Assembly (NCBI GenBank): GCA_021825445.1
Contig: JAKAHA010000005.1
Coordinates: 21,316 to 85,315 of the forward strand
DNA: 64,000 nt
DNA from: a bacterium
Lineage (GTDB): Bacteria; Patescibacteriota; Microgenomatia; UBA1406; GWC2-37-13
Direction of reading: 5' to 3'
Below, in pieces: positions 51,205 through 56,271 of this stretch; positions within the stretch are counted from its first letter, which is position 1, and every line of letters starts with the position of its first letter. The notes under the pieces were generated by a model. The model ran no database searches and was not told the DNA's origin. It saw only the letters and a program-made list of their open reading frames with translations. Both the position numbers and the translations under genes were made by a program.

Positions 51205-51276
51205 GGATCTGTAGTTCAACGGTTAGAACGGTACTCTTATAAAGTACAGGCGATGGTTCGACTCCATCCTGATCCA
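51205..51276 (+). tRNA. tRNA-Ile (anticodon UAU)
   Basis: Hand-folded. Acceptor GGATCTG/CTGATCC with one U-U mismatch. D arm GTTC-AACGGTTA-GAAC. Perfect anticodon stem GTACT/AGTAC with loop CTTATAA. T arm GATGG-TTCGACT-CCATC. Confidence 0.8.
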
Positions 51277-51290
51277 CAGAATGTAGTTTT

Positions 51291-51389: not shown

Positions 51390-52898
51390 ATGCGAAAAAT
51401 TCCAGGTACGATGATTTCTCAACATCCGGACCATGGTAATAAACCTTATTGGCAAAAAAATGCTTTCATAAAAACTGGGGATGAAATAAAAGAATGTTTT
51501 TTATCTTTTTCTGAACTTGGAACTTCTGAATATAAGTGGGACTGGGAAGGGAAATATGTTGACGAATCAGTGATCGAGAAATTGTTGAGCGAACACCACG
51601 AATATTTTAAAAAAAATCTACTTGGAAAAGAAAAATTTTTAACTTTTAGATTACCTAATCCAAAAGTAGAAACAGAATTTCGGTTGGGACGAGCATTTAT
51701 GGGAATACTGGGCGCAGCTGGACTTGCCAAAAAAATTGGTCTTCATAGTCCGCCACTATTTGAAGTAATTCTACCAATGACTGAGTCAGCCGAAGAAATG
51801 ATTGCAATTCAAGAAGCTTTTAAAGAAATAGCATCGCTTAAACACGCTCTTTATGATTTTGGAGAAGAAAGCTTAAAGCATATTGAAATAATTCCGTTAT
51901 TTGAACAAGTGTCAACAATTATCAGCTCGCATAAAATTTTGGAAAAATATTTACAATTGCATAAAAAAATATTTAATTTTAAACCGCTATATATTCGACC
52001 ATATTTAGCTCGCTCTGACCCGGCTTTAAATTCAGGACTTGTCCCTACAGTTTTGGCTATCAAAATCGGACTTTCGCATTATCTGGATTTTGAGAAAAAA
52101 TATAATATTAAACTTTATCCAATCATTGGTTCGGCATCTTTGCCTTTTCGTGGAGGGCTGACACCAAATACGGTTGAGCAATTTTGTCATGAATACAGGG
52201 GGATAAAAACAGTTCTGATACAAAGCGCTTTTAGATATGATTATGAAAAAAAATCAGTCATAACGGCAATAAAAAAATTGGAAAAAATTCTTCCTTCAGG
52301 AAAAGCCGATTCAATTTCAAAAAAAGAGGAAGAAAAATTGGAAAAAATAATTTCTGTTTTTGAAAAATATTATCGAAGTTCAGTTGAGACAATCGCTGAA
52401 CTGGTCAACAATGTATCGGGATACTTGCCAAAAAGACGGGAAAGAGTCTTGCATATTGGACTTTTTGGATATTCTCGAGGCGTAGGTAAGGTGAGATTAC
52501 CAAGAGCGATTGGTTTTACTGGTGCTTTATATTCATTGGGAATTCCGCCAGAAATAATCGGGACTGGTCGGGGAATAAAATATGCAATTGAAAATAATCA
52601 GATAAAATTATTAGAGAAATATTATTTAAATATCAAAGATGATCTAAAAAAAGCTGGTCGATTTGTCCAAAAAGATGAGCTAATAAAATTAGCACATGGA
52701 GGATCCCAAGTTTGGAAAGATATTTTAAACGATATTGTAGAGATAGAAAAATATTTAGGAGAAAAATTTATACCAAAGACAGCCGCCGAAAGAGAACATT
52801 TTGTGCTTGTTAAAAAACTTCACGAAAAAATCGACTCTGGAAAAAATTATCAAATATATCTCAATAAATTGGCTGTTCTTAGGAAAAGTTTGGGATAA
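51390..52898 (+). CDS. ppcA: Archaeal-type phosphoenolpyruvate carboxylase
   Basis: N-terminus MRKIPGTMISQHPDH matches the characteristic atPEPC start (IPR-MSTQHPDN). The roughly 500-aa length fits atPEPC rather than the roughly 900-aa bacterial Ppc. Confidence 0.85.
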   Translation: MRKIPGTMISQHPDHGNKPYWQKNAFIKTGDEIKECFLSFSELGTSEYKWDWEGKYVDESVIEKLLSEHHEYFKKNLLGKEKFLTFRLPNPKVETEFRLGRAFMGILGAAGLAKKIGLHSPPLFEVILPMTESAEEMIAIQEAFKEIASLKHALYDFGEESLKHIEIIPLFEQVSTIISSHKILEKYLQLHKKIFNFKPLYIRPYLARSDPALNSGLVPTVLAIKIGLSHYLDFEKKYNIKLYPIIGSASLPFRGGLTPNTVEQFCHEYRGIKTVLIQSAFRYDYEKKSVITAIKKLEKILPSGKADSISKKEEEKLEKIISVFEKYYRSSVETIAELVNNVSGYLPKRRERVLHIGLFGYSRGVGKVRLPRAIGFTGALYSLGIPPEIIGTGRGIKYAIENNQIKLLEKYYLNIKDDLKKAGRFVQKDELIKLAHGGSQVWKDILNDIVEIEKYLGEKFIPKTAAEREHFVLVKKLHEKIDSGKNYQIYLNKLAVLRKSLG

Positions 52899-52944: not shown

Positions 52945-54150
52945 ATGAAAAATATTAAAGTTTCGGGTAGGTTGTTGGAAGTTCCTGCGTCACCTATTAG
53001 AAAGTTAGTTCCCTATGCAACTGCGGCAAAAAAAAGAGGGATAAAGGTTTATCACCTCAATATTGGTGATCCCGATATTAAAACTCCAGAGGTAATGATA
53101 GATGTTTTGAAAAATTGGAAGGATAATCCAATTGCCTATGGTCAATCTCAAGGTCAACCAAAATTTCTTGAGTCATTAGTCGGTTATTATAAAAAACTTG
53201 GTTATTCGTTTGTGGAATCAAAAAATATTCAGGTGACAACTGGTGGATCAGAAGCGATCTCGATGGCACTTTTTGCAGTTTGTGCACCTGGCGAGGAAGT
53301 AATCACTTTTGAGCCGTATTACGCAAACTATAATTCTTACTCAAAGATAAATGGCGTAAAGATAGTTCCGGTTTTAACAAAAGGGGAGACTGGGTTTCAC
53401 TTGCCAGATAGAAAAGTAATTGAAAAGAAAATTGGTAAAAAAACCAAAGCAATTCTTATCTGTAATCCAAGTAATCCCACAGGAACCGTTTATACAAAGG
53501 AAGAGATGGAGATGTTGGTTTCGATTTGTGTAAAAAATAATTTGTTTTTGATATCGGACGAAGTTTATCGAGAATTTGTCTATGACGGAAAAAAATATTT
53601 TTCGATTCTTGAGTATATGAAAAAATATCCAGACAAAATGATTTTACTCGATAGTCTTTCAAAACGTTATAGTCTTTGTGGAGCACGACTGGGAATGATT
53701 GTCTCCCTAAATAAAGATTTAACCGACGGAGTTTTGAGAATGGCTCAAGGACGACTTTCTTCCGGGTATGTCGATCAAGCGATGGCTGAAAAATTAACTG
53801 AAGTCGACGACAGTTATTTCAAAGCAGTCCATAGAGAATATCAGACTCGTCGGGATCTTCTTTACAAAGGACTAAAGTCTATCCCTGGAGTTTATTTGGA
53901 AAAACCAGAAGGAGCTTTTTATACAATCGTCAAATTGCCAGTAAAAGATAGTGAAGATTTTTGCCAATGGTTGTTGGAAAAATTTAGTTACAAAAATGGA
54001 ACGGTGATGGTGGCACCAGCTGCCGGATTTTATGGAACTCCCGGAATGGGAAAAAATGAAGTGAGAATTGCCTACGTCCTCAATGTCCAAGACTTGGAAA
54101 AAGCGATTGAGATAATCGCCCACGCTCTGGTAGAATATAACAGGAAATAA
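52945..54150 (+). CDS. Class I/II PLP-dependent aminotransferase (aspartate aminotransferase-like)
   Basis: ICNPSNPTG and LDSLSKRYSLCGARLG (PLP-lysine motif), 401 aa. Confidence 0.88.
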   Translation: MKNIKVSGRLLEVPASPIRKLVPYATAAKKRGIKVYHLNIGDPDIKTPEVMIDVLKNWKDNPIAYGQSQGQPKFLESLVGYYKKLGYSFVESKNIQVTTGGSEAISMALFAVCAPGEEVITFEPYYANYNSYSKINGVKIVPVLTKGETGFHLPDRKVIEKKIGKKTKAILICNPSNPTGTVYTKEEMEMLVSICVKNNLFLISDEVYREFVYDGKKYFSILEYMKKYPDKMILLDSLSKRYSLCGARLGMIVSLNKDLTDGVLRMAQGRLSSGYVDQAMAEKLTEVDDSYFKAVHREYQTRRDLLYKGLKSIPGVYLEKPEGAFYTIVKLPVKDSEDFCQWLLEKFSYKNGTVMVAPAAGFYGTPGMGKNEVRIAYVLNVQDLEKAIEIIAHALVEYNRK

Positions 54151-54157
54151 ACCATAT

Positions 54158-54210
54158 GCGGGCGTAGTTTACCGGTAAAATGTCCCGCCTCGGCGGGAAG
54201 ACAACGGGTC
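54158..54210 (+). pseudogene. Truncated tRNA-Gly-like fragment (positions 1 to about 56: acceptor 5' strand, D arm, aberrant anticodon arm, variable loop, start of T arm)
   Basis: 54155-54182 is 28/28 identical to 54446-54473. It continues with the hairpin TCCCGC-CTCG-GCGGGA (not a 7-nt anticodon loop), AGACA (identical), and ACGGGTC versus GAGGGTC. No 3' acceptor strand follows. Confidence 0.6.
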
Positions 54211-54212
54211 AT

Positions 54213-54458
54213 ATGTTTACGGTTTATATTTTAAAGTCGAAAACAACAGGTAAGTTCTACATCGGTTGTACAAATAACATTATTAGAAGATTGCAAGAAC
54301 ATAACGCAAATAAAACACGGTCAATAAAAAATAAAGGACCATTTGAATTAATTCATCAAGAAAATTATAATAGCTTGTCTGAAGGAAGAATAAGGGAGCG
54401 AAAGATAAAGTTATACAAAGGAGGAAATGCCTTTAAAAAGTTGATTATGCGGGCGTAG
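54213..54458 (+). CDS. Small GIY-YIG nuclease-domain protein (catalytic domain only, 81 aa)
   Basis: MFTVYILKSKTTGKFYIGCTNNIIRRLQEHN...RERKIK shows the GIY, YIG, Arg and Glu motifs. The 11 extra N-terminal codons in the track ORF are encoded by the tRNA fragment. The last 3 sense codons and the stop (M-R-A-TAG) lie in the tRNA-Gly acceptor stem and positions 8-10. Confidence 0.85.
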   Translation: MFTVYILKSKTTGKFYIGCTNNIIRRLQEHNANKTRSIKNKGPFELIHQENYNSLSEGRIRERKIKLYKGGNAFKKLIMRA

Positions 54459-54520
54459 TTTACCGGTAAAATGCCTCCTTGCCAAGGAGGAGACAGAGGG
54501 TCCAATTCCCTTCGCCCGCT
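54449..54520 (+). tRNA. tRNA-Gly (anticodon GCC)
   Basis: Hand-folded. Acceptor GCGGGCG/CGCCCGC, discriminator U. Anticodon stem CCTCC/GGAGG, loop TTGCCAA. T arm GAGGG-TCCAATT-CCCTT. Note C where the near-universal U55 is expected. Confidence 0.88.
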
Positions 54521-54525
54521 CATTT

Positions 54526-56271
54526 TTACAGACCAGATTGAATAACGGCAGTTCCTGCGTTTGTGTCTCCAGCACTTACAGTTCTAACTATTGGATCTCC
54601 ACCTGGATATATCCATTTAACTGGCAAGGCTGCTAATGAATATTCATCATCGATTTTACAAAAACCATTTGTAAGAAAATGTATCATACCATCATTGTTA
54701 TTATTATGTAAAAAATTAGAAAGTTGAATTATCTTATATATACCTTCAACCTTTAATGCATTTGTTAACGGTGTATTATCTGATGCATCAGGAGTGATCT
54801 TTCTATCCAATAGCCATTGTACTACTCGTAATTTTCCATATCCTAAAGCCAACACTTCTCTTTTCATTTTTTCCGTTGTGGCATTTTTTCGAATAGAAAT
54901 ATCGATATCTTGACCATGGATGTGCAGTCTTTCAACTTCCAAATATTTGGCTAGAGTAAAAGCATTTTCATAAAACGCAATTATTTTATCGTCGCTTTTA
55001 CTTAATTCTAAACCTAATTCTTCATGGAGATTTTTTGTAATTTTCCCAAATTCTTCATCGTTAATGCTAAAACTATCAATATTTCCTTTAAGTACATCTC
55101 TGAAAAATTTTAGATCTTCAAATTTCCCGGAAAATTCAAACAAAATTTTTAATTTACCTGAAGAGCGTAATATCTTAAATTGTTCAACCATTTTTTTTGA
55201 AATTTCAGAATATCTGTCTTGAGGTATTCTTTGAAGTTGGTTTGGATCAGTTGCAAAAAAATAATCATAATTTTGAGCAATCATTTTCAATTGATCATCA
55301 GTAAAATTTAATATTGGATCCGTATCCATGTTATTTCCATCCTTGTCATAATAGTGACTAACAACTGCTATTCGATCACTTTTTTTTACTTCATATGTTT
55401 TTTTTCCAATTATAATTTTTATATCTTTTTTAAATTCAATCGGATAATTAATTTTAGTCGGTGCCTCTGGAGTTGCAGATTCAACAATTGTTTTATTTTT
55501 TATTTTTCCATCCTCAATGGATAGAAATTTTAGTTTATCATTTTTGAATGTTGCTGCTAATTCTGAAGAATTGTGTTGTGTTGTGAGAGTTACGTCTTCA
55601 CCAATTGAATCAAGAAGTTTCGTCAAATGAGCTGCCGATCCACCCACTTTAAAAAAATCTGGATTAGGAGAAAATATCTCATTAATCCAGTCTCTTAGCT
55701 TAAGACCTGTTCCGACCTTACCATCAAGATCATTTATTTGCATTCTGCCGTTACCTTTACCTATAAATTGTCTAATAATGTGAGCAATAATCTCTTCGCG
55801 TGTTGTAACTATATATGGAATATTGCCATCAGTTTCCACTATTTTAATAATTTTTTCTATTACATTTTCATCGGTAAACTTTTGTGCACTGGTTATGGCT
55901 TTATCTATTATGTCGTTGGCATTATCAGGATTTAGATTTATTAACTTATCAACACAAACACTATTACCTAATAATATTTTTTTATTTGTAGGAGTCAACT
56001 TTTTACTTTCAGAAAATAATTTACTTAAACTGTAGACTCCACTATAAATAATTTTATGAGTGATACCTTTTAATTGTTTTTCTAATAATTTCATATCTTT
56101 AAATTGTTGAAGTGGGAGAGTAAAAAGTCGAGGTTTACCTGTATCAGCGTGATATGCTTGAGAATGTATTTCAACCATGACTAAAATAATATCATATTTA
56201 ATCAAAAATACATCAATTATTTTAAGTATCTCCCTATAAATATGGTCAGCCAGAGGAAAATCAGAAGGCAA
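54526..56271 (-). CDS. ADP-dependent (archaeal-type) sugar kinase family protein (ADP-PFK/GK-like, ribokinase superfamily)
   Basis: Colinear matches to recalled ADP-GK motifs: KVGGSAAHLTKLL (cf. RMGGQAGIMANLL), FEFSG...SFSINDEEFGKI (cf. LEFA...VGLNEVELASI, NxxE), ERLHIHGQ (cf. KRIHFHT), TVSAGDTNAG (cf. TVGIGDTISS). The start may be at 56178 (MVEIHS). Confidence 0.65.
   Translation of the reverse strand: MPSDFPLADHIYREILKIIDVFLIKYDIILVMVEIHSQAYHADTGKPRLFTLPLQQFKDMKLLEKQLKGITHKIIYSGVYSLSKLFSESKKLTPTNKKILLGNSVCVDKLINLNPDNANDIIDKAITSAQKFTDENVIEKIIKIVETDGNIPYIVTTREEIIAHIIRQFIGKGNGRMQINDLDGKVGTGLKLRDWINEIFSPNPDFFKVGGSAAHLTKLLDSIGEDVTLTTQHNSSELAATFKNDKLKFLSIEDGKIKNKTIVESATPEAPTKINYPIEFKKDIKIIIGKKTYEVKKSDRIAVVSHYYDKDGNNMDTDPILNFTDDQLKMIAQNYDYFFATDPNQLQRIPQDRYSEISKKMVEQFKILRSSGKLKILFEFSGKFEDLKFFRDVLKGNIDSFSINDEEFGKITKNLHEELGLELSKSDDKIIAFYENAFTLAKYLEVERLHIHGQDIDISIRKNATTEKMKREVLALGYGKLRVVQWLLDRKITPDASDNTPLTNALKVEGIYKIIQLSNFLHNNNNDGMIHFLTNGFCKIDDEYSLAALPVKWIYPGGDPIVRTVSAGDTNAGTAVIQSGL

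Follow-up and report, generated by a model that had tools for sequence, protein, structure and literature searches.

What brings a small nuclease gene to lie between an intact tRNA gene and a broken copy of that same tRNA? This arrangement is found in a 64-kb stretch of the patescibacterial contig JAKAHA010000005.1 (the window; GC content 32%), where an open reading frame (ORF) for an 81-aa GIY-YIG protein separates a disabled tRNA-Gly fragment from an intact tRNA-Gly(GCC) gene. The same region is present in assemblies GCA_027424365.1 and GCA_027348375.1, SRR13299515 and ERZ27237563 are among the samples containing this genome, and the close homologs that bear names come from Candidatus Roizmanbacteria and other Patescibacteria. 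Comparing the window with 80 homologous loci taken from GTDB species representatives (401 kb of locus DNA together; L-numbers denote the related loci compared), we find that the locus is probably one copy of a widespread family of selfish tRNA-gene cassettes, spread by nuclease-stimulated recombination. The cassette has three parts, a minimal GIY-YIG gene, a conserved GC hairpin and a partial copy of the host tRNA that holds the hairpin, while an intact copy of the same tRNA adjoins the other end of the GIY-YIG gene.

Within the window the order is a promoter-like site, the disabled 5' fragment with its hairpin, the ORF and the intact tRNA (Table 1). A 28-nt block, TATGCGGGCGTAGTTTACCGGTAAAATG, occurs twice with 100% identity at a spacing of 291 bp and is the sole significant self-match of the cassette region. 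An earlier reading made from the letters of this DNA without database searches (the sequence-only reading) had described this repeat, with the second copy continuing into a complete tRNA-Gly(GCC), and the repeat search, ARAGORN and Rfam bear it out. Direct reading also agrees with its account of the first copy: tRNA positions 1-25 (54158-54182) are followed by the hairpin TCCCGCCTCGGCGGGA (54183-54198), which takes the place of the 17-nt anticodon arm, and then by AGACA (54199-54203) and ACGGGTC (54204-54210), the latter being the T-stem 5' strand with the first two T-loop bases. Two more nucleotides, AT, precede the ATG at 54213, so that the fragment does not break off exactly at the start codon, as had been stated, but 2 nt earlier. 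The partial copy has no anticodon loop, no T-arm 3' half and no acceptor 3' strand. It gave neither an Rfam match at E≤10 nor an ARAGORN call; on these grounds we rejected it as a functional or unusual tRNA, and the complete first tRNA that would have spoken against a mobile unit is not there. The hairpin folds as DNA with 6 bp and a tetraloop (-5.9 kcal/mol, z -2.6). We rejected it as an intrinsic terminator of the upstream aminotransferase gene, as no T-run follows it and the terminator scan was silent.

At its other end the ORF runs into the intact tRNA. It finishes with ATG CGG GCG TAG, and the TAG consists of tRNA positions 8-10 (U8-A9-G10). The proposal that the last codons and the stop are encoded by the tRNA is right for the stop, but the first two letters of the Met codon, A and T, precede the tRNA-Gly start. 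Database gene models give a 92-aa version of the ORF that starts at 54180; this N-extension is unconserved, and in L081 it lies in another reading frame. Relative to the empty sites described below, the insert measures 291 bp, of which the ORF makes up 246 bp. An insert drawn at 54155-54445 is equally valid, because the phasing within the repeat is arbitrary. The two tRNA copies are not simply one duplicated sequence, since the T stem of the fragment reads ACGGG, the allele of the L096 tRNA-Gly, and that of the intact tRNA reads GAGGG; the intact tRNA is 99-100% identical to those of the L093 empty site and of L081. No further copy of the ORF or of the hairpin was found within the window.

Table 1. 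Features of the tRNA-Gly cassette, in window positions
Feature	Position	Strand	Basis or remark
Promoter-like site TTGAGA-18 nt-TG.TAGAAT	54107-54136	+	Consensus scan, 10/12 matches, extended -10; inside aminotransferase 3' end
Direct repeat copy 1 (TAT + tRNA positions 1-25)	54155-54182	+	100% identical to 54446-54473
Disabled partial tRNA-Gly copy (H5' fragment)	54158-54210	+	Read directly; local alignment to intact tRNA spans positions 1-54
Conserved GC palindrome/hairpin TCCCGCC-TC-GGCGGGA	54183-54198	+	Single copy in window
291-bp insert relative to empty-site relatives	54183-54473	+	Hairpin, 12-nt tRNA piece, ORF, repeated tRNA 5' part
81-aa minimal GIY-YIG nuclease gene	54213-54458	+	Pfam PF01541
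Direct repeat copy 2	54446-54473	+	Identical to copy 1
Intact tRNA-Gly(GCC), functional copy	54449-54521	+	ARAGORN; Rfam tRNA 60 bits, E 2.6e-12

Is this arrangement a local accident or a general one? The ORF directly adjoins a tRNA on the same strand in 75 of the 80 loci, against 2.4% expected from local tRNA density, and never adjoins one in antisense. The link between small GIY-YIG genes and tRNA genes that the sequence-only reading had suggested checking is therefore real for this ORF subfamily. The other five loci comprise three in which the contig ends less than 100 nt from the ORF and two with a tRNA 120-190 nt away. The ORF precedes the tRNA alone in 52 loci and follows it alone in 21. 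Eleven specificities are represented at these loci (Gly, Tyr, Ser, Thr, Pro, Glu, His, Ala, Lys, Trp and Gln), and a second cassette copy in L096 adds the type Phe. The hosts belong mainly to the Candidate Phyla Radiation (CPR), and some records are named Bacteroidota, Ignavibacteria, Omnitrophota, Calditrichota and others. A profile search yielded 6,082 clusters (50% identity) at E≤1e-10.

The junctions between ORF and tRNA are tight. Where the ORF lies upstream (n = 55, that is 54 loci and the window), its stop codon falls inside the tRNA in 31, and in 8 of them, the window included, it is formed by U8-A9-G10; where the ORF lies downstream, its ATG is frequently found -1 to +5 nt past the tRNA end. 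Many homologs accordingly end in MRA, LRV, KRV or longer translated tRNA 5' ends, and the N-extensions of several are translated hairpin sequence. Relatives of 205-214 aa with two domains were considered as fused dimers and rejected: they are read-through of tandem tRNA-ORF-tRNA-ORF arrays (P0163, P0164), in which the linkers PWFES and RFES are translated T arms. Gene callers mis-annotate such tandem cassettes as two-domain GIY-YIG proteins.

The side of the ORF opposite the intact tRNA usually bears an incomplete copy of that local tRNA, and in the window and many loci with a strict hairpin motif the hairpin sits within this copy. Loci in which the tRNA comes first are the mirror image of the window: tRNA, ORF, tRNA positions ~10 to 26, hairpin, positions 44-76. 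About one fifth of the loci are 'full', with a hairpin-bearing 5' fragment, the ORF and the intact tRNA in either order, and a hairpin-bearing 3' fragment, and the paired hairpins of these loci often share identical loops (L002, L003, L007, L019, L024, L041). Beside some tRNAs we find tandem arrays of hairpin-bearing fragments that have no ORF (L026 2015-2440, L037 1744-1990, L058 3310-3460, L074 2600-2880). These arrays lie upstream or downstream of the intact tRNA with a period of ~88-155 nt including spacers; parts of L026 and L037 are N-masked, and ARAGORN labels one full-length hairpin-bearing copy 'tRNA-???' with a 2-nt anticodon. In L018 (3001-4160) a hairpin-bearing tRNA-Tyr 3' fragment lies ~670 nt past the intact tRNA, a gap that suggests extra DNA, possibly cargo, between split tRNA halves. 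Degenerate ORF remnants occur in L001, L013, L050, L055 and L072, and two genomes carry loci at two different tRNAs (L004/L017 and L049/L076). The additional cassette of L096 encodes an 84-aa GIY-YIG protein directly after tRNA-Phe (1628-1956); a degraded GIY-YIG remnant occupies the corresponding site of L001 (2540-2820), and the site after tRNA-Phe in the window (51365) is empty.

The GC hairpin, which the sequence-only reading had described as a different hairpin in the first copy, is a hallmark of the cassette family. Its strict form, YCCCGCC-N2-3-GGCGGGR, occurs 89 times in the locus DNA, against 0.05 expected from shuffles, and 70 of the 89 lie within 150 nt of an ORF end, a local enrichment of 59-fold. 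At least one ORF-proximal strict hairpin is present in 52 of the 80 loci, with degenerate forms visible in most others. The outermost pair covaries (C..G 42, T..A 41), and the centre measures 2 nt in 50 cases and 3 nt in 35. The position of the hairpin in the tRNA depends on the element. It wholly replaces the anticodon arm in Gly, Thr and His elements (26|44) and the D arm in Pro elements (10|27), and it lies within the D loop (15|18) or the anticodon loop (34|35) of Tyr and Ser elements; fragments with two or three hairpins are common. Searching for the hairpin pattern within its tRNA-Gly surroundings brought up additional elements, in either arrangement, at this tRNA-Gly type. The hairpin is always on the side of the ORF away from the tRNA, that is 5' when the ORF comes first and 3' when the tRNA does.

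What, then, sets the point at which the fragment ends? The distance from the hairpin to the ORF junction is roughly constant, about 7-25 nt, on either side of the ORF. The ORF-proximal end of the fragment lies about 10-20 nt past the hairpin, so that the fragment ends at position 28-32 when the hairpin lies in the D loop and at 53-60 when it stands for the anticodon arm. The break 'at the T loop' in the window is thus set by the position of the hairpin and not by a T-loop target, and with 11 specificities in the family the idea that the element aims at the T loop of tRNA-Gly finds no support. The sequence-only reading had also pointed to a C, shared by both copies, at the near-universal U55. 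This C is real (54502 in the intact copy), but its proposed role as a recognition or immunity site was rejected: the empty-site tRNAs of L092 and L096 have C55, and the cassette-bearing L081 has the canonical T. C55 is a clade polymorphism at an otherwise invariant tRNA position, with T loops reading TCCAATT or TCCGATT in the window, L091, L092 and L096, and TTC in L081 and L093.

Our best guess is that the hairpin is a cis-acting site recognised by the nuclease. Its conserved sequence, its location beyond the tRNA and its presence in ORF-less arrays argue for a role at the DNA level.

The locus is conserved around the insertion, with the order phosphoenolpyruvate (PEP) carboxylase, aminotransferase, [cassette], tRNA-Gly, DUF998, NUDIX. 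The cassette is present in the window, in its conspecifics L087-L090 and in a second lineage, L081-L086, whose ORF is 85% identical. In four relatives (L092, L093, L095, L096) the aminotransferase stop codon is followed after 4-8 nt by one intact tRNA-Gly, with no fragment, hairpin or ORF at the site. These are the empty sites, aminotransferase directly followed by tRNA-Gly, that the sequence-only reading had asked for. They come from genomes whose aminotransferase is 70-87% identical to that of the window, and the insert relative to them is exactly the 291-bp repeat unit. The proposal of a mobile or formerly mobile unit of roughly 290 bp is therefore largely right, as is the idea that its duplicated 5' part preserves an intact tRNA, and the presence/absence polymorphism at one conserved site among related genomes is that expected of a homing endonuclease gene.

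One relative has two tRNA-derived copies and no ORF. L091, the closest by aminotransferase (90%), reads foreign tRNA-Gly allele, 7 nt, CGGTAAAATG, hairpin, AGACAGAGGGTCCAATTCCCTTCGCCCGCTCA, where the second piece is the usual tRNA-Gly of the clade from position 17 to the end, with the hairpin in place of the anticodon arm. Its working tRNA-Gly shares only 75% identity with that of the window but matches that of L095 fully (100%), although the L095 aminotransferase is 73% identical. In L091, then, the tRNA allele was exchanged horizontally, and the resident one persists as a hairpin-marked stump. Two copies without an ORF had been named in advance as an argument against mobility; such a pair does exist in L091, yet with a foreign allele and a hairpin-bearing 3' fragment, and it reads as a decayed element, not as evidence against movement. 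More broadly, the tRNA-Gly(GCC) genes at this locus are 75-100% identical among L091-L096, the flanking aminotransferases are 68-90% identical, and the two are incongruent; in L094 the tRNA is inverted. This turnover is unusually fast for a tRNA gene.

Further signs of spread independent of the host lineage come from the ORF itself. Between the window and L081 synonymous divergence (pS) is 0.43 in the ORF and 0.69 in the adjoining aminotransferase, a contrast of ~3.5 standard errors by our own estimate (the ORF has ~55 synonymous sites), and this makes the cassette look more recent than the divergence of its hosts. In a neighbour-joining tree the ORFs of the window and L001, which precede tRNA-Gly, cluster outside the main Gly clade with elements that follow tRNA-Thr and tRNA-Gly, a weakly resolved case of switching between tRNA types.

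The encoded protein is intact and selected. All 80 ORFs are intact, a count that is biased because the loci were retrieved via an intact YKGGNAFK peptide, and the ratio of nonsynonymous to synonymous divergence (dN/dS) of 0.08-0.22 indicates purifying selection on the ORF. Divergence across the element is far from uniform, as had been noted from the window. Between the window and L081, with a synonymous divergence (dS) of 0.65 in the ORF, tRNA positions 1-25 of the fragment differ at 0 of 25 sites and the hairpin stem at 0 of 14, where ~40% of sites should differ under neutrality; the hairpin centre differs at 2 of 2 sites, and the 12-nt piece after the hairpin at 3 of 12 with an indel. The stem is probably under selection, because the window holds no other copy from which it could be corrected. 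The 5' repeat, for its part, is kept either by selection or by ongoing conversion from the intact tRNA. The fragment matches the tRNA of its own lineage, as in L001, where GCGGGTG...GGCAAAACG is found in both copies, and fragment and tRNA match perfectly (25/25) in the window, L009, L017, L034 and L039.

The 81-aa product matches the GIY-YIG family (PF01541) with E 5e-13 and 49.6 bits against a cutoff of 22.6, which upholds its original identification. Among 42 homologs Y5, R26, H30, E62 and K66 are invariant and Y16, G18 and N72 are conserved to at least 90%. The AlphaFold2 model (pLDDT 91) has the beta-beta-alpha-beta-alpha core, and the protein is a bare catalytic domain with a short C-terminal helix that carries the family motif YKGGNAFK. 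In profile searches against the PDB the family is closest to UPF0213 proteins (BH0048, 1zg2, 2e-11; EF2693, 1ywl, 7e-10), followed by Slx1 (3e-5) and I-TevI (9e-4). Foldseek likewise ranks 1zg2 first, then the Slx1 nuclease domain (TMq 0.65-0.71), I-TevI and UvrC. Judged by profile and predicted fold, this is a minimal domain of the Slx1/UPF0213 type, with no accessory domain, and not an enzyme of the I-TevI/Seg type, as the parallel with phage homing endonucleases drawn by the sequence-only reading would suggest. Homing endonucleases of that type are roughly 200-250 aa long; here, in 81 aa, there is no linker and no C-terminal DNA-binding domain. The group-I-intron endonuclease model TIGR01453 reaches 23.7 bits against a cutoff of 56, over residues 3-37 alone, and the PHROG and PADLOC matches to homing endonucleases span just the first 35-53 residues. 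We rejected membership of a known defence system, the PADLOC matches being weak and partial.

How could such a cassette move? We infer that the nuclease breaks DNA in or next to the tRNA gene, or in the hairpin, and that the break is repaired by recombination with a cassette-bearing copy, for which the tRNA sequence would serve as portable homology. Integration by a single crossover (Campbell-type, 'ends-in') between a tRNA gene and DNA in which a segment of tRNA-like homology, one arm replaced by the hairpin, lies beside the ORF would duplicate part of the tRNA and leave one copy intact, so that the tRNA is kept. A crossover 5' of the hairpin would give fragment, hairpin, ORF and intact tRNA, as in the window; one 3' of the hairpin would give intact tRNA, ORF, hairpin and fragment; and integration into a copy already marked by a hairpin would give the 'full' form with a hairpin at both ends. 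The identical-loop hairpins on both outer fragments of 'full' loci support this geometry. Excision by recombination between the two repeats would leave a clean tRNA again, like those of the empty sites. That tRNA genes are the most conserved homology between genomes would explain both why the cassette uses them and how it crosses lineages.

The same arrangement may serve expression. The ORF would lack its own promoter, and often its own stop codon too; it would be expressed from the tRNA transcript, and tRNA processing would set one end of its mRNA. In the window the promoter-like site lies ~20 nt before the fragment, and its TAGAAT block is conserved in filled and empty relatives. We regard TTGAGA-18-TG.TAGAAT as the putative native promoter of tRNA-Gly, which would now drive fragment, ORF and tRNA together; the cassette, lying between this probable tRNA promoter and the tRNA, is therefore probably co-transcribed with it. 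If RNase P then cleaved at the 5' end of the tRNA, the ORF would lose its stop codon, in the window as in all upstream ORFs that end inside the tRNA, and, speculatively, this loss may keep nuclease levels low. A second promoter-like site, TTGAAT-17-TATAAT (54343-54371, + strand), lies inside the ORF ~75 nt before the intact tRNA. From there the tRNA could be transcribed on its own; the site is only a consensus match in AT-rich DNA.

Several points weigh against a selfish, nuclease-driven cassette. To our knowledge neither cleavage activity nor a target site is known for this protein or any UPF0213 member, and an 81-aa domain with no DNA-binding module is unlikely to act as a sequence-specific homing enzyme. 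A vector was sought with tblastn against phages and plasmids and with a scan of IMG/VR, but no relatives on phages, plasmids or viral contigs came to light. The cassette is kept at the same locus in lineages whose ORFs are 85% identical, and all sampled ORFs are intact, which also fits a gene useful to its host. The intact tRNA beside the ORF in L081 is 100% identical to the empty-site allele of L093, so that simple sequence immunity cannot explain why the host chromosome stays uncut. Finally, the contrast in synonymous divergence is based on the ~55 sites mentioned, and the tree on ~80 residues.

What would the nuclease recognise, if not a sequence? Recognition of folded DNA is an attractive possibility, given that an 81-aa Slx1-like domain is unlikely to read the 11 different tRNA sequences of the family, that hairpins occupy the junctions between helices or the loops, and that the place of the ORF junction depends on the hairpin. 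It is conceivable, if somewhat unlikely, that the cassettes are an unrecognised class of mobile DNA in which an Slx1-like nuclease and a 16-nt hairpin target the folded (cloverleaf or cruciform) DNA of tRNA genes and not their sequence, swapping arms for the hairpin, regenerating or importing a working tRNA and relying on tRNA transcription and processing for expression. Were this so, tRNA genes of any specificity in many phyla would be open to invasion by a 0.3-kb element, which would drive the turnover of tRNA alleles between lineages.

A sharper version of the selfish-cassette reading makes the element itself transposon-like and hairpin-ended. Its Slx1-like nuclease would recognise stem-loop or cruciform DNA and cut at helix junctions and loops of the tRNA and beside its own hairpin, and the hairpin-bounded segment would be excised and pasted, with a tRNA arm exchanged for the hairpin. 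We consider this unlikely. The placement of the hairpins speaks for it, at cloverleaf junctions in Gly, Thr and His (26|44) and Pro (10|27) or in loops (15|18, 34|35), as do the near-constant 7-25 nt between hairpin and ORF junction wherever the hairpin sits, the identical-loop hairpins at both outer boundaries of 'full' loci and a full-length hairpin-bearing tRNA-like copy in L037, with no ORF, which may be a footprint; eleven specificities would moreover be hard for sequence recognition by 81 aa, and the fold is Slx1-like. A nuclease alone, however, cannot join DNA, and no circular or excised forms of the cassette were observed. Nor is the hairpin dispersed, the 64 kb holding one copy; the junction positions vary, and homologous recombination with deletions can yield all of the architectures.

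Alternatively, the nuclease may be a domesticated one that benefits the host and is co-expressed with tRNAs, for instance acting on tRNA transcripts or stabilising tRNA loci, with the hairpin as an RNA element that stabilises the mRNA end not capped by a tRNA and the fragments as by-products of recombination. Strong purifying selection, the 80 intact ORFs and retention at one locus in diverged relatives would all be expected of such a gene; the hairpin is always on the non-tRNA side of the ORF, tRNAs punctuate the ORF tightly, and a TrmH-GIY-YIG fusion has suggested an RNA role for prokaryotic Slx1-like proteins (PMC1564403). Against this stand the clean empty sites in the closest relatives, a synonymous divergence of the ORF lower than that of the flanking gene and tRNA alleles incongruent with it. 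A hairpin for RNA stability would not require conservation of sequence, hairpins beyond the tRNA and in ORF-less arrays cannot serve an mRNA, and RNase P processing would strip the stop codon from 31 of the 55 upstream ORFs. We therefore hold a host-beneficial gene to be improbable.

Two further explanations are refuted, the first by the comparative data and the second by insert size and the empty sites. If tRNA-Gly had long ago been duplicated in tandem, with its first copy now in decay and an ORF of unrelated origin between the two, this would account for two tandem tRNA-derived copies, but not for the three-part architecture in ~75 independent loci with 11 tRNA types, the conserved hairpin, the lack of uniform decay (0/25 and 0/14 against an ORF dS of 0.65) or the empty sites. 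The edge of an integrase-mediated island or prophage (attL/attR) is suggested by tRNA genes being classic integration sites and partial tRNA duplication the usual scar, but the insert is 291 bp with no integrase and no kilobase-scale cargo, 246 bp of it are the ORF, the flanking genes are those of the empty sites, the duplicated part is 5' and not 3', and no phage, plasmid or viral relatives were found.

How does the cassette compare with known systems? By profile and fold its protein is closest to UPF0213 (BH0048, EF2693), a minimal domain with no accessory module to which the stand-alone Slx1-like protein YhbQ of E. coli also belongs. The function of UPF0213 is unassigned, and no tRNA linkage or mobility has been described for it, whereas the subfamily of the window has the YKGGNAFK helix, the link to tRNA and hairpin, and presence/absence polymorphism. 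Slx1 is a structure-specific nuclease (PMC1564403). Stand-alone Slx1-like proteins of prokaryotes have been treated as vertically inherited and of the repair type, with selfish members derived from the UvrC lineage, and the phylogenomic survey of GIY-YIG proteins makes no mention of tRNA linkage (PMC1564403).

SegB of phage T4 offers a further parallel. This free-standing GIY-YIG homing endonuclease is encoded among the clustered tRNA genes of T4, cuts within the tRNA region and, through break repair, favours the inheritance of its own gene and the flanks (PMC2330249). SegB is also reported to promote segmental amplification (PMC13096335), which resembles the fragment arrays of L026, L058 and L074, and it too is a GIY-YIG gene among tRNA genes. 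However, SegB is phage-borne, multi-domain, of the Seg/I-TevI type and of the UvrC/homing-endonuclease lineage in the Dunin-Horkawicz scheme, whereas the protein of the window is an 81-aa catalytic domain, chromosomal, accompanied by a hairpin and a duplicated tRNA fragment, and was not found in phage, plasmid or viral collections. Group I introns with GIY-YIG homing endonucleases occur in the anticodon loops of bacterial tRNAs (PMC3984707). There too a GIY-YIG-associated insertion, often in the anticodon arm, leaves tRNA function intact, but through splicing; here there is duplication, no ribozyme, and 246 of 291 bp are coding, and Rfam found no ribozyme or intron family in 53900-54800 at E≤10.

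Tyrosine-integrase elements also land in tRNA genes, regenerate the tRNA with a carried segment and exploit the stem-loop symmetry of tRNA arms. The cassette differs in having no integrase, in its size of 0.3 kb against kilobases to hundreds of kilobases, and in its hairpin-broken copy. Organellar free-standing homing endonuclease genes, such as the Allomyces atp6 element and those embedded in rps3, insert with a replacement gene segment; in them, as here, the insert brings a duplicate part of the target and a functional gene stands beside a dead fragment. Their targets are mitochondrial protein-coding genes, their enzymes are larger and the dead copy has no conserved hairpin, whereas the cassette family targets tRNAs and duplicates a 5' or a 3' part. 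REP/RAYT and IS200/IS605 elements, whose hairpins are recognised in folded form as DNA, likewise pair a small nuclease gene with a conserved GC-rich palindrome, which here has a loop of 2-5 nt and a covarying stem, features to be expected if it folds. They use HUH/Y1 transposases and have hairpins genome-wide; here the protein is GIY-YIG and the hairpin lies mostly near the ORF or in tRNA fragments, with one copy in the 64 kb, and we do not place the element among them. Our literature search, of incomplete coverage, turned up no account of Slx1-like GIY-YIG cassettes linked to tRNAs, nor of the hairpin, so that absence from the literature is unproven. We rate the cassette as a free-standing homing-type nuclease gene that preserves its target by duplication, and there is a substantial chance that recognition of structure and not sequence is a new principle.

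The surroundings of the cassette also show differences between relatives. Four nucleotides after tRNA-Gly, on the opposite strand, begins a 581-aa ORF (54526-56271, - strand) with no Pfam match. It is a distant relative of archaeal-type ADP-dependent phosphofructokinase (PDB 6c8z, 1.4e-11; TIGR02045, 57 bits, far under the cutoff). It is not in L081, L091 or L092, where DUF998 directly follows the tRNA, and is therefore a lineage-specific 1.7-kb insertion 3' of the tRNA. Upstream, an archaeal-type PEP carboxylase (51390-52898, + strand; PF14010, 3e-134) adjoins the aminotransferase; it is present at this locus in L087-L092 and absent in L093-L096. Further upstream, a tRNA-Ile with the anticodon TAT (UAU), an uncommon tRNA in bacteria, lies at 51205-51277 (+ strand) in an Ala(CGC)-Ile(TAT)-Phe(GAA) cluster that is conserved in relatives, usually after Arg(CCG).

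What would a selfish tRNA-gene cassette mean for the bacteria that carry it? If our reading is right, it would explain ~6,000 clusters of 'hypothetical GIY-YIG proteins' and would place the cassettes, ~0.3 kb long and encoding an enzyme of 81 aa, among the smallest known selfish elements that are autonomous. The Slx1-like branch of GIY-YIG proteins, held to consist of vertical repair proteins, would then have given rise to selfish elements as well. The finding would matter for tRNA annotation, in which hairpin-bearing pseudo-tRNAs are called 'tRNA-???', and for phylogenetics, and the compact pair of nuclease and hairpin, with its testable recognition rule, would be a potentially useful tool. 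In the streamlined CPR and other uncultured bacteria, tRNA genes would then be hotspots at which fragments are duplicated, tandem arrays form and tRNA alleles are replaced horizontally.

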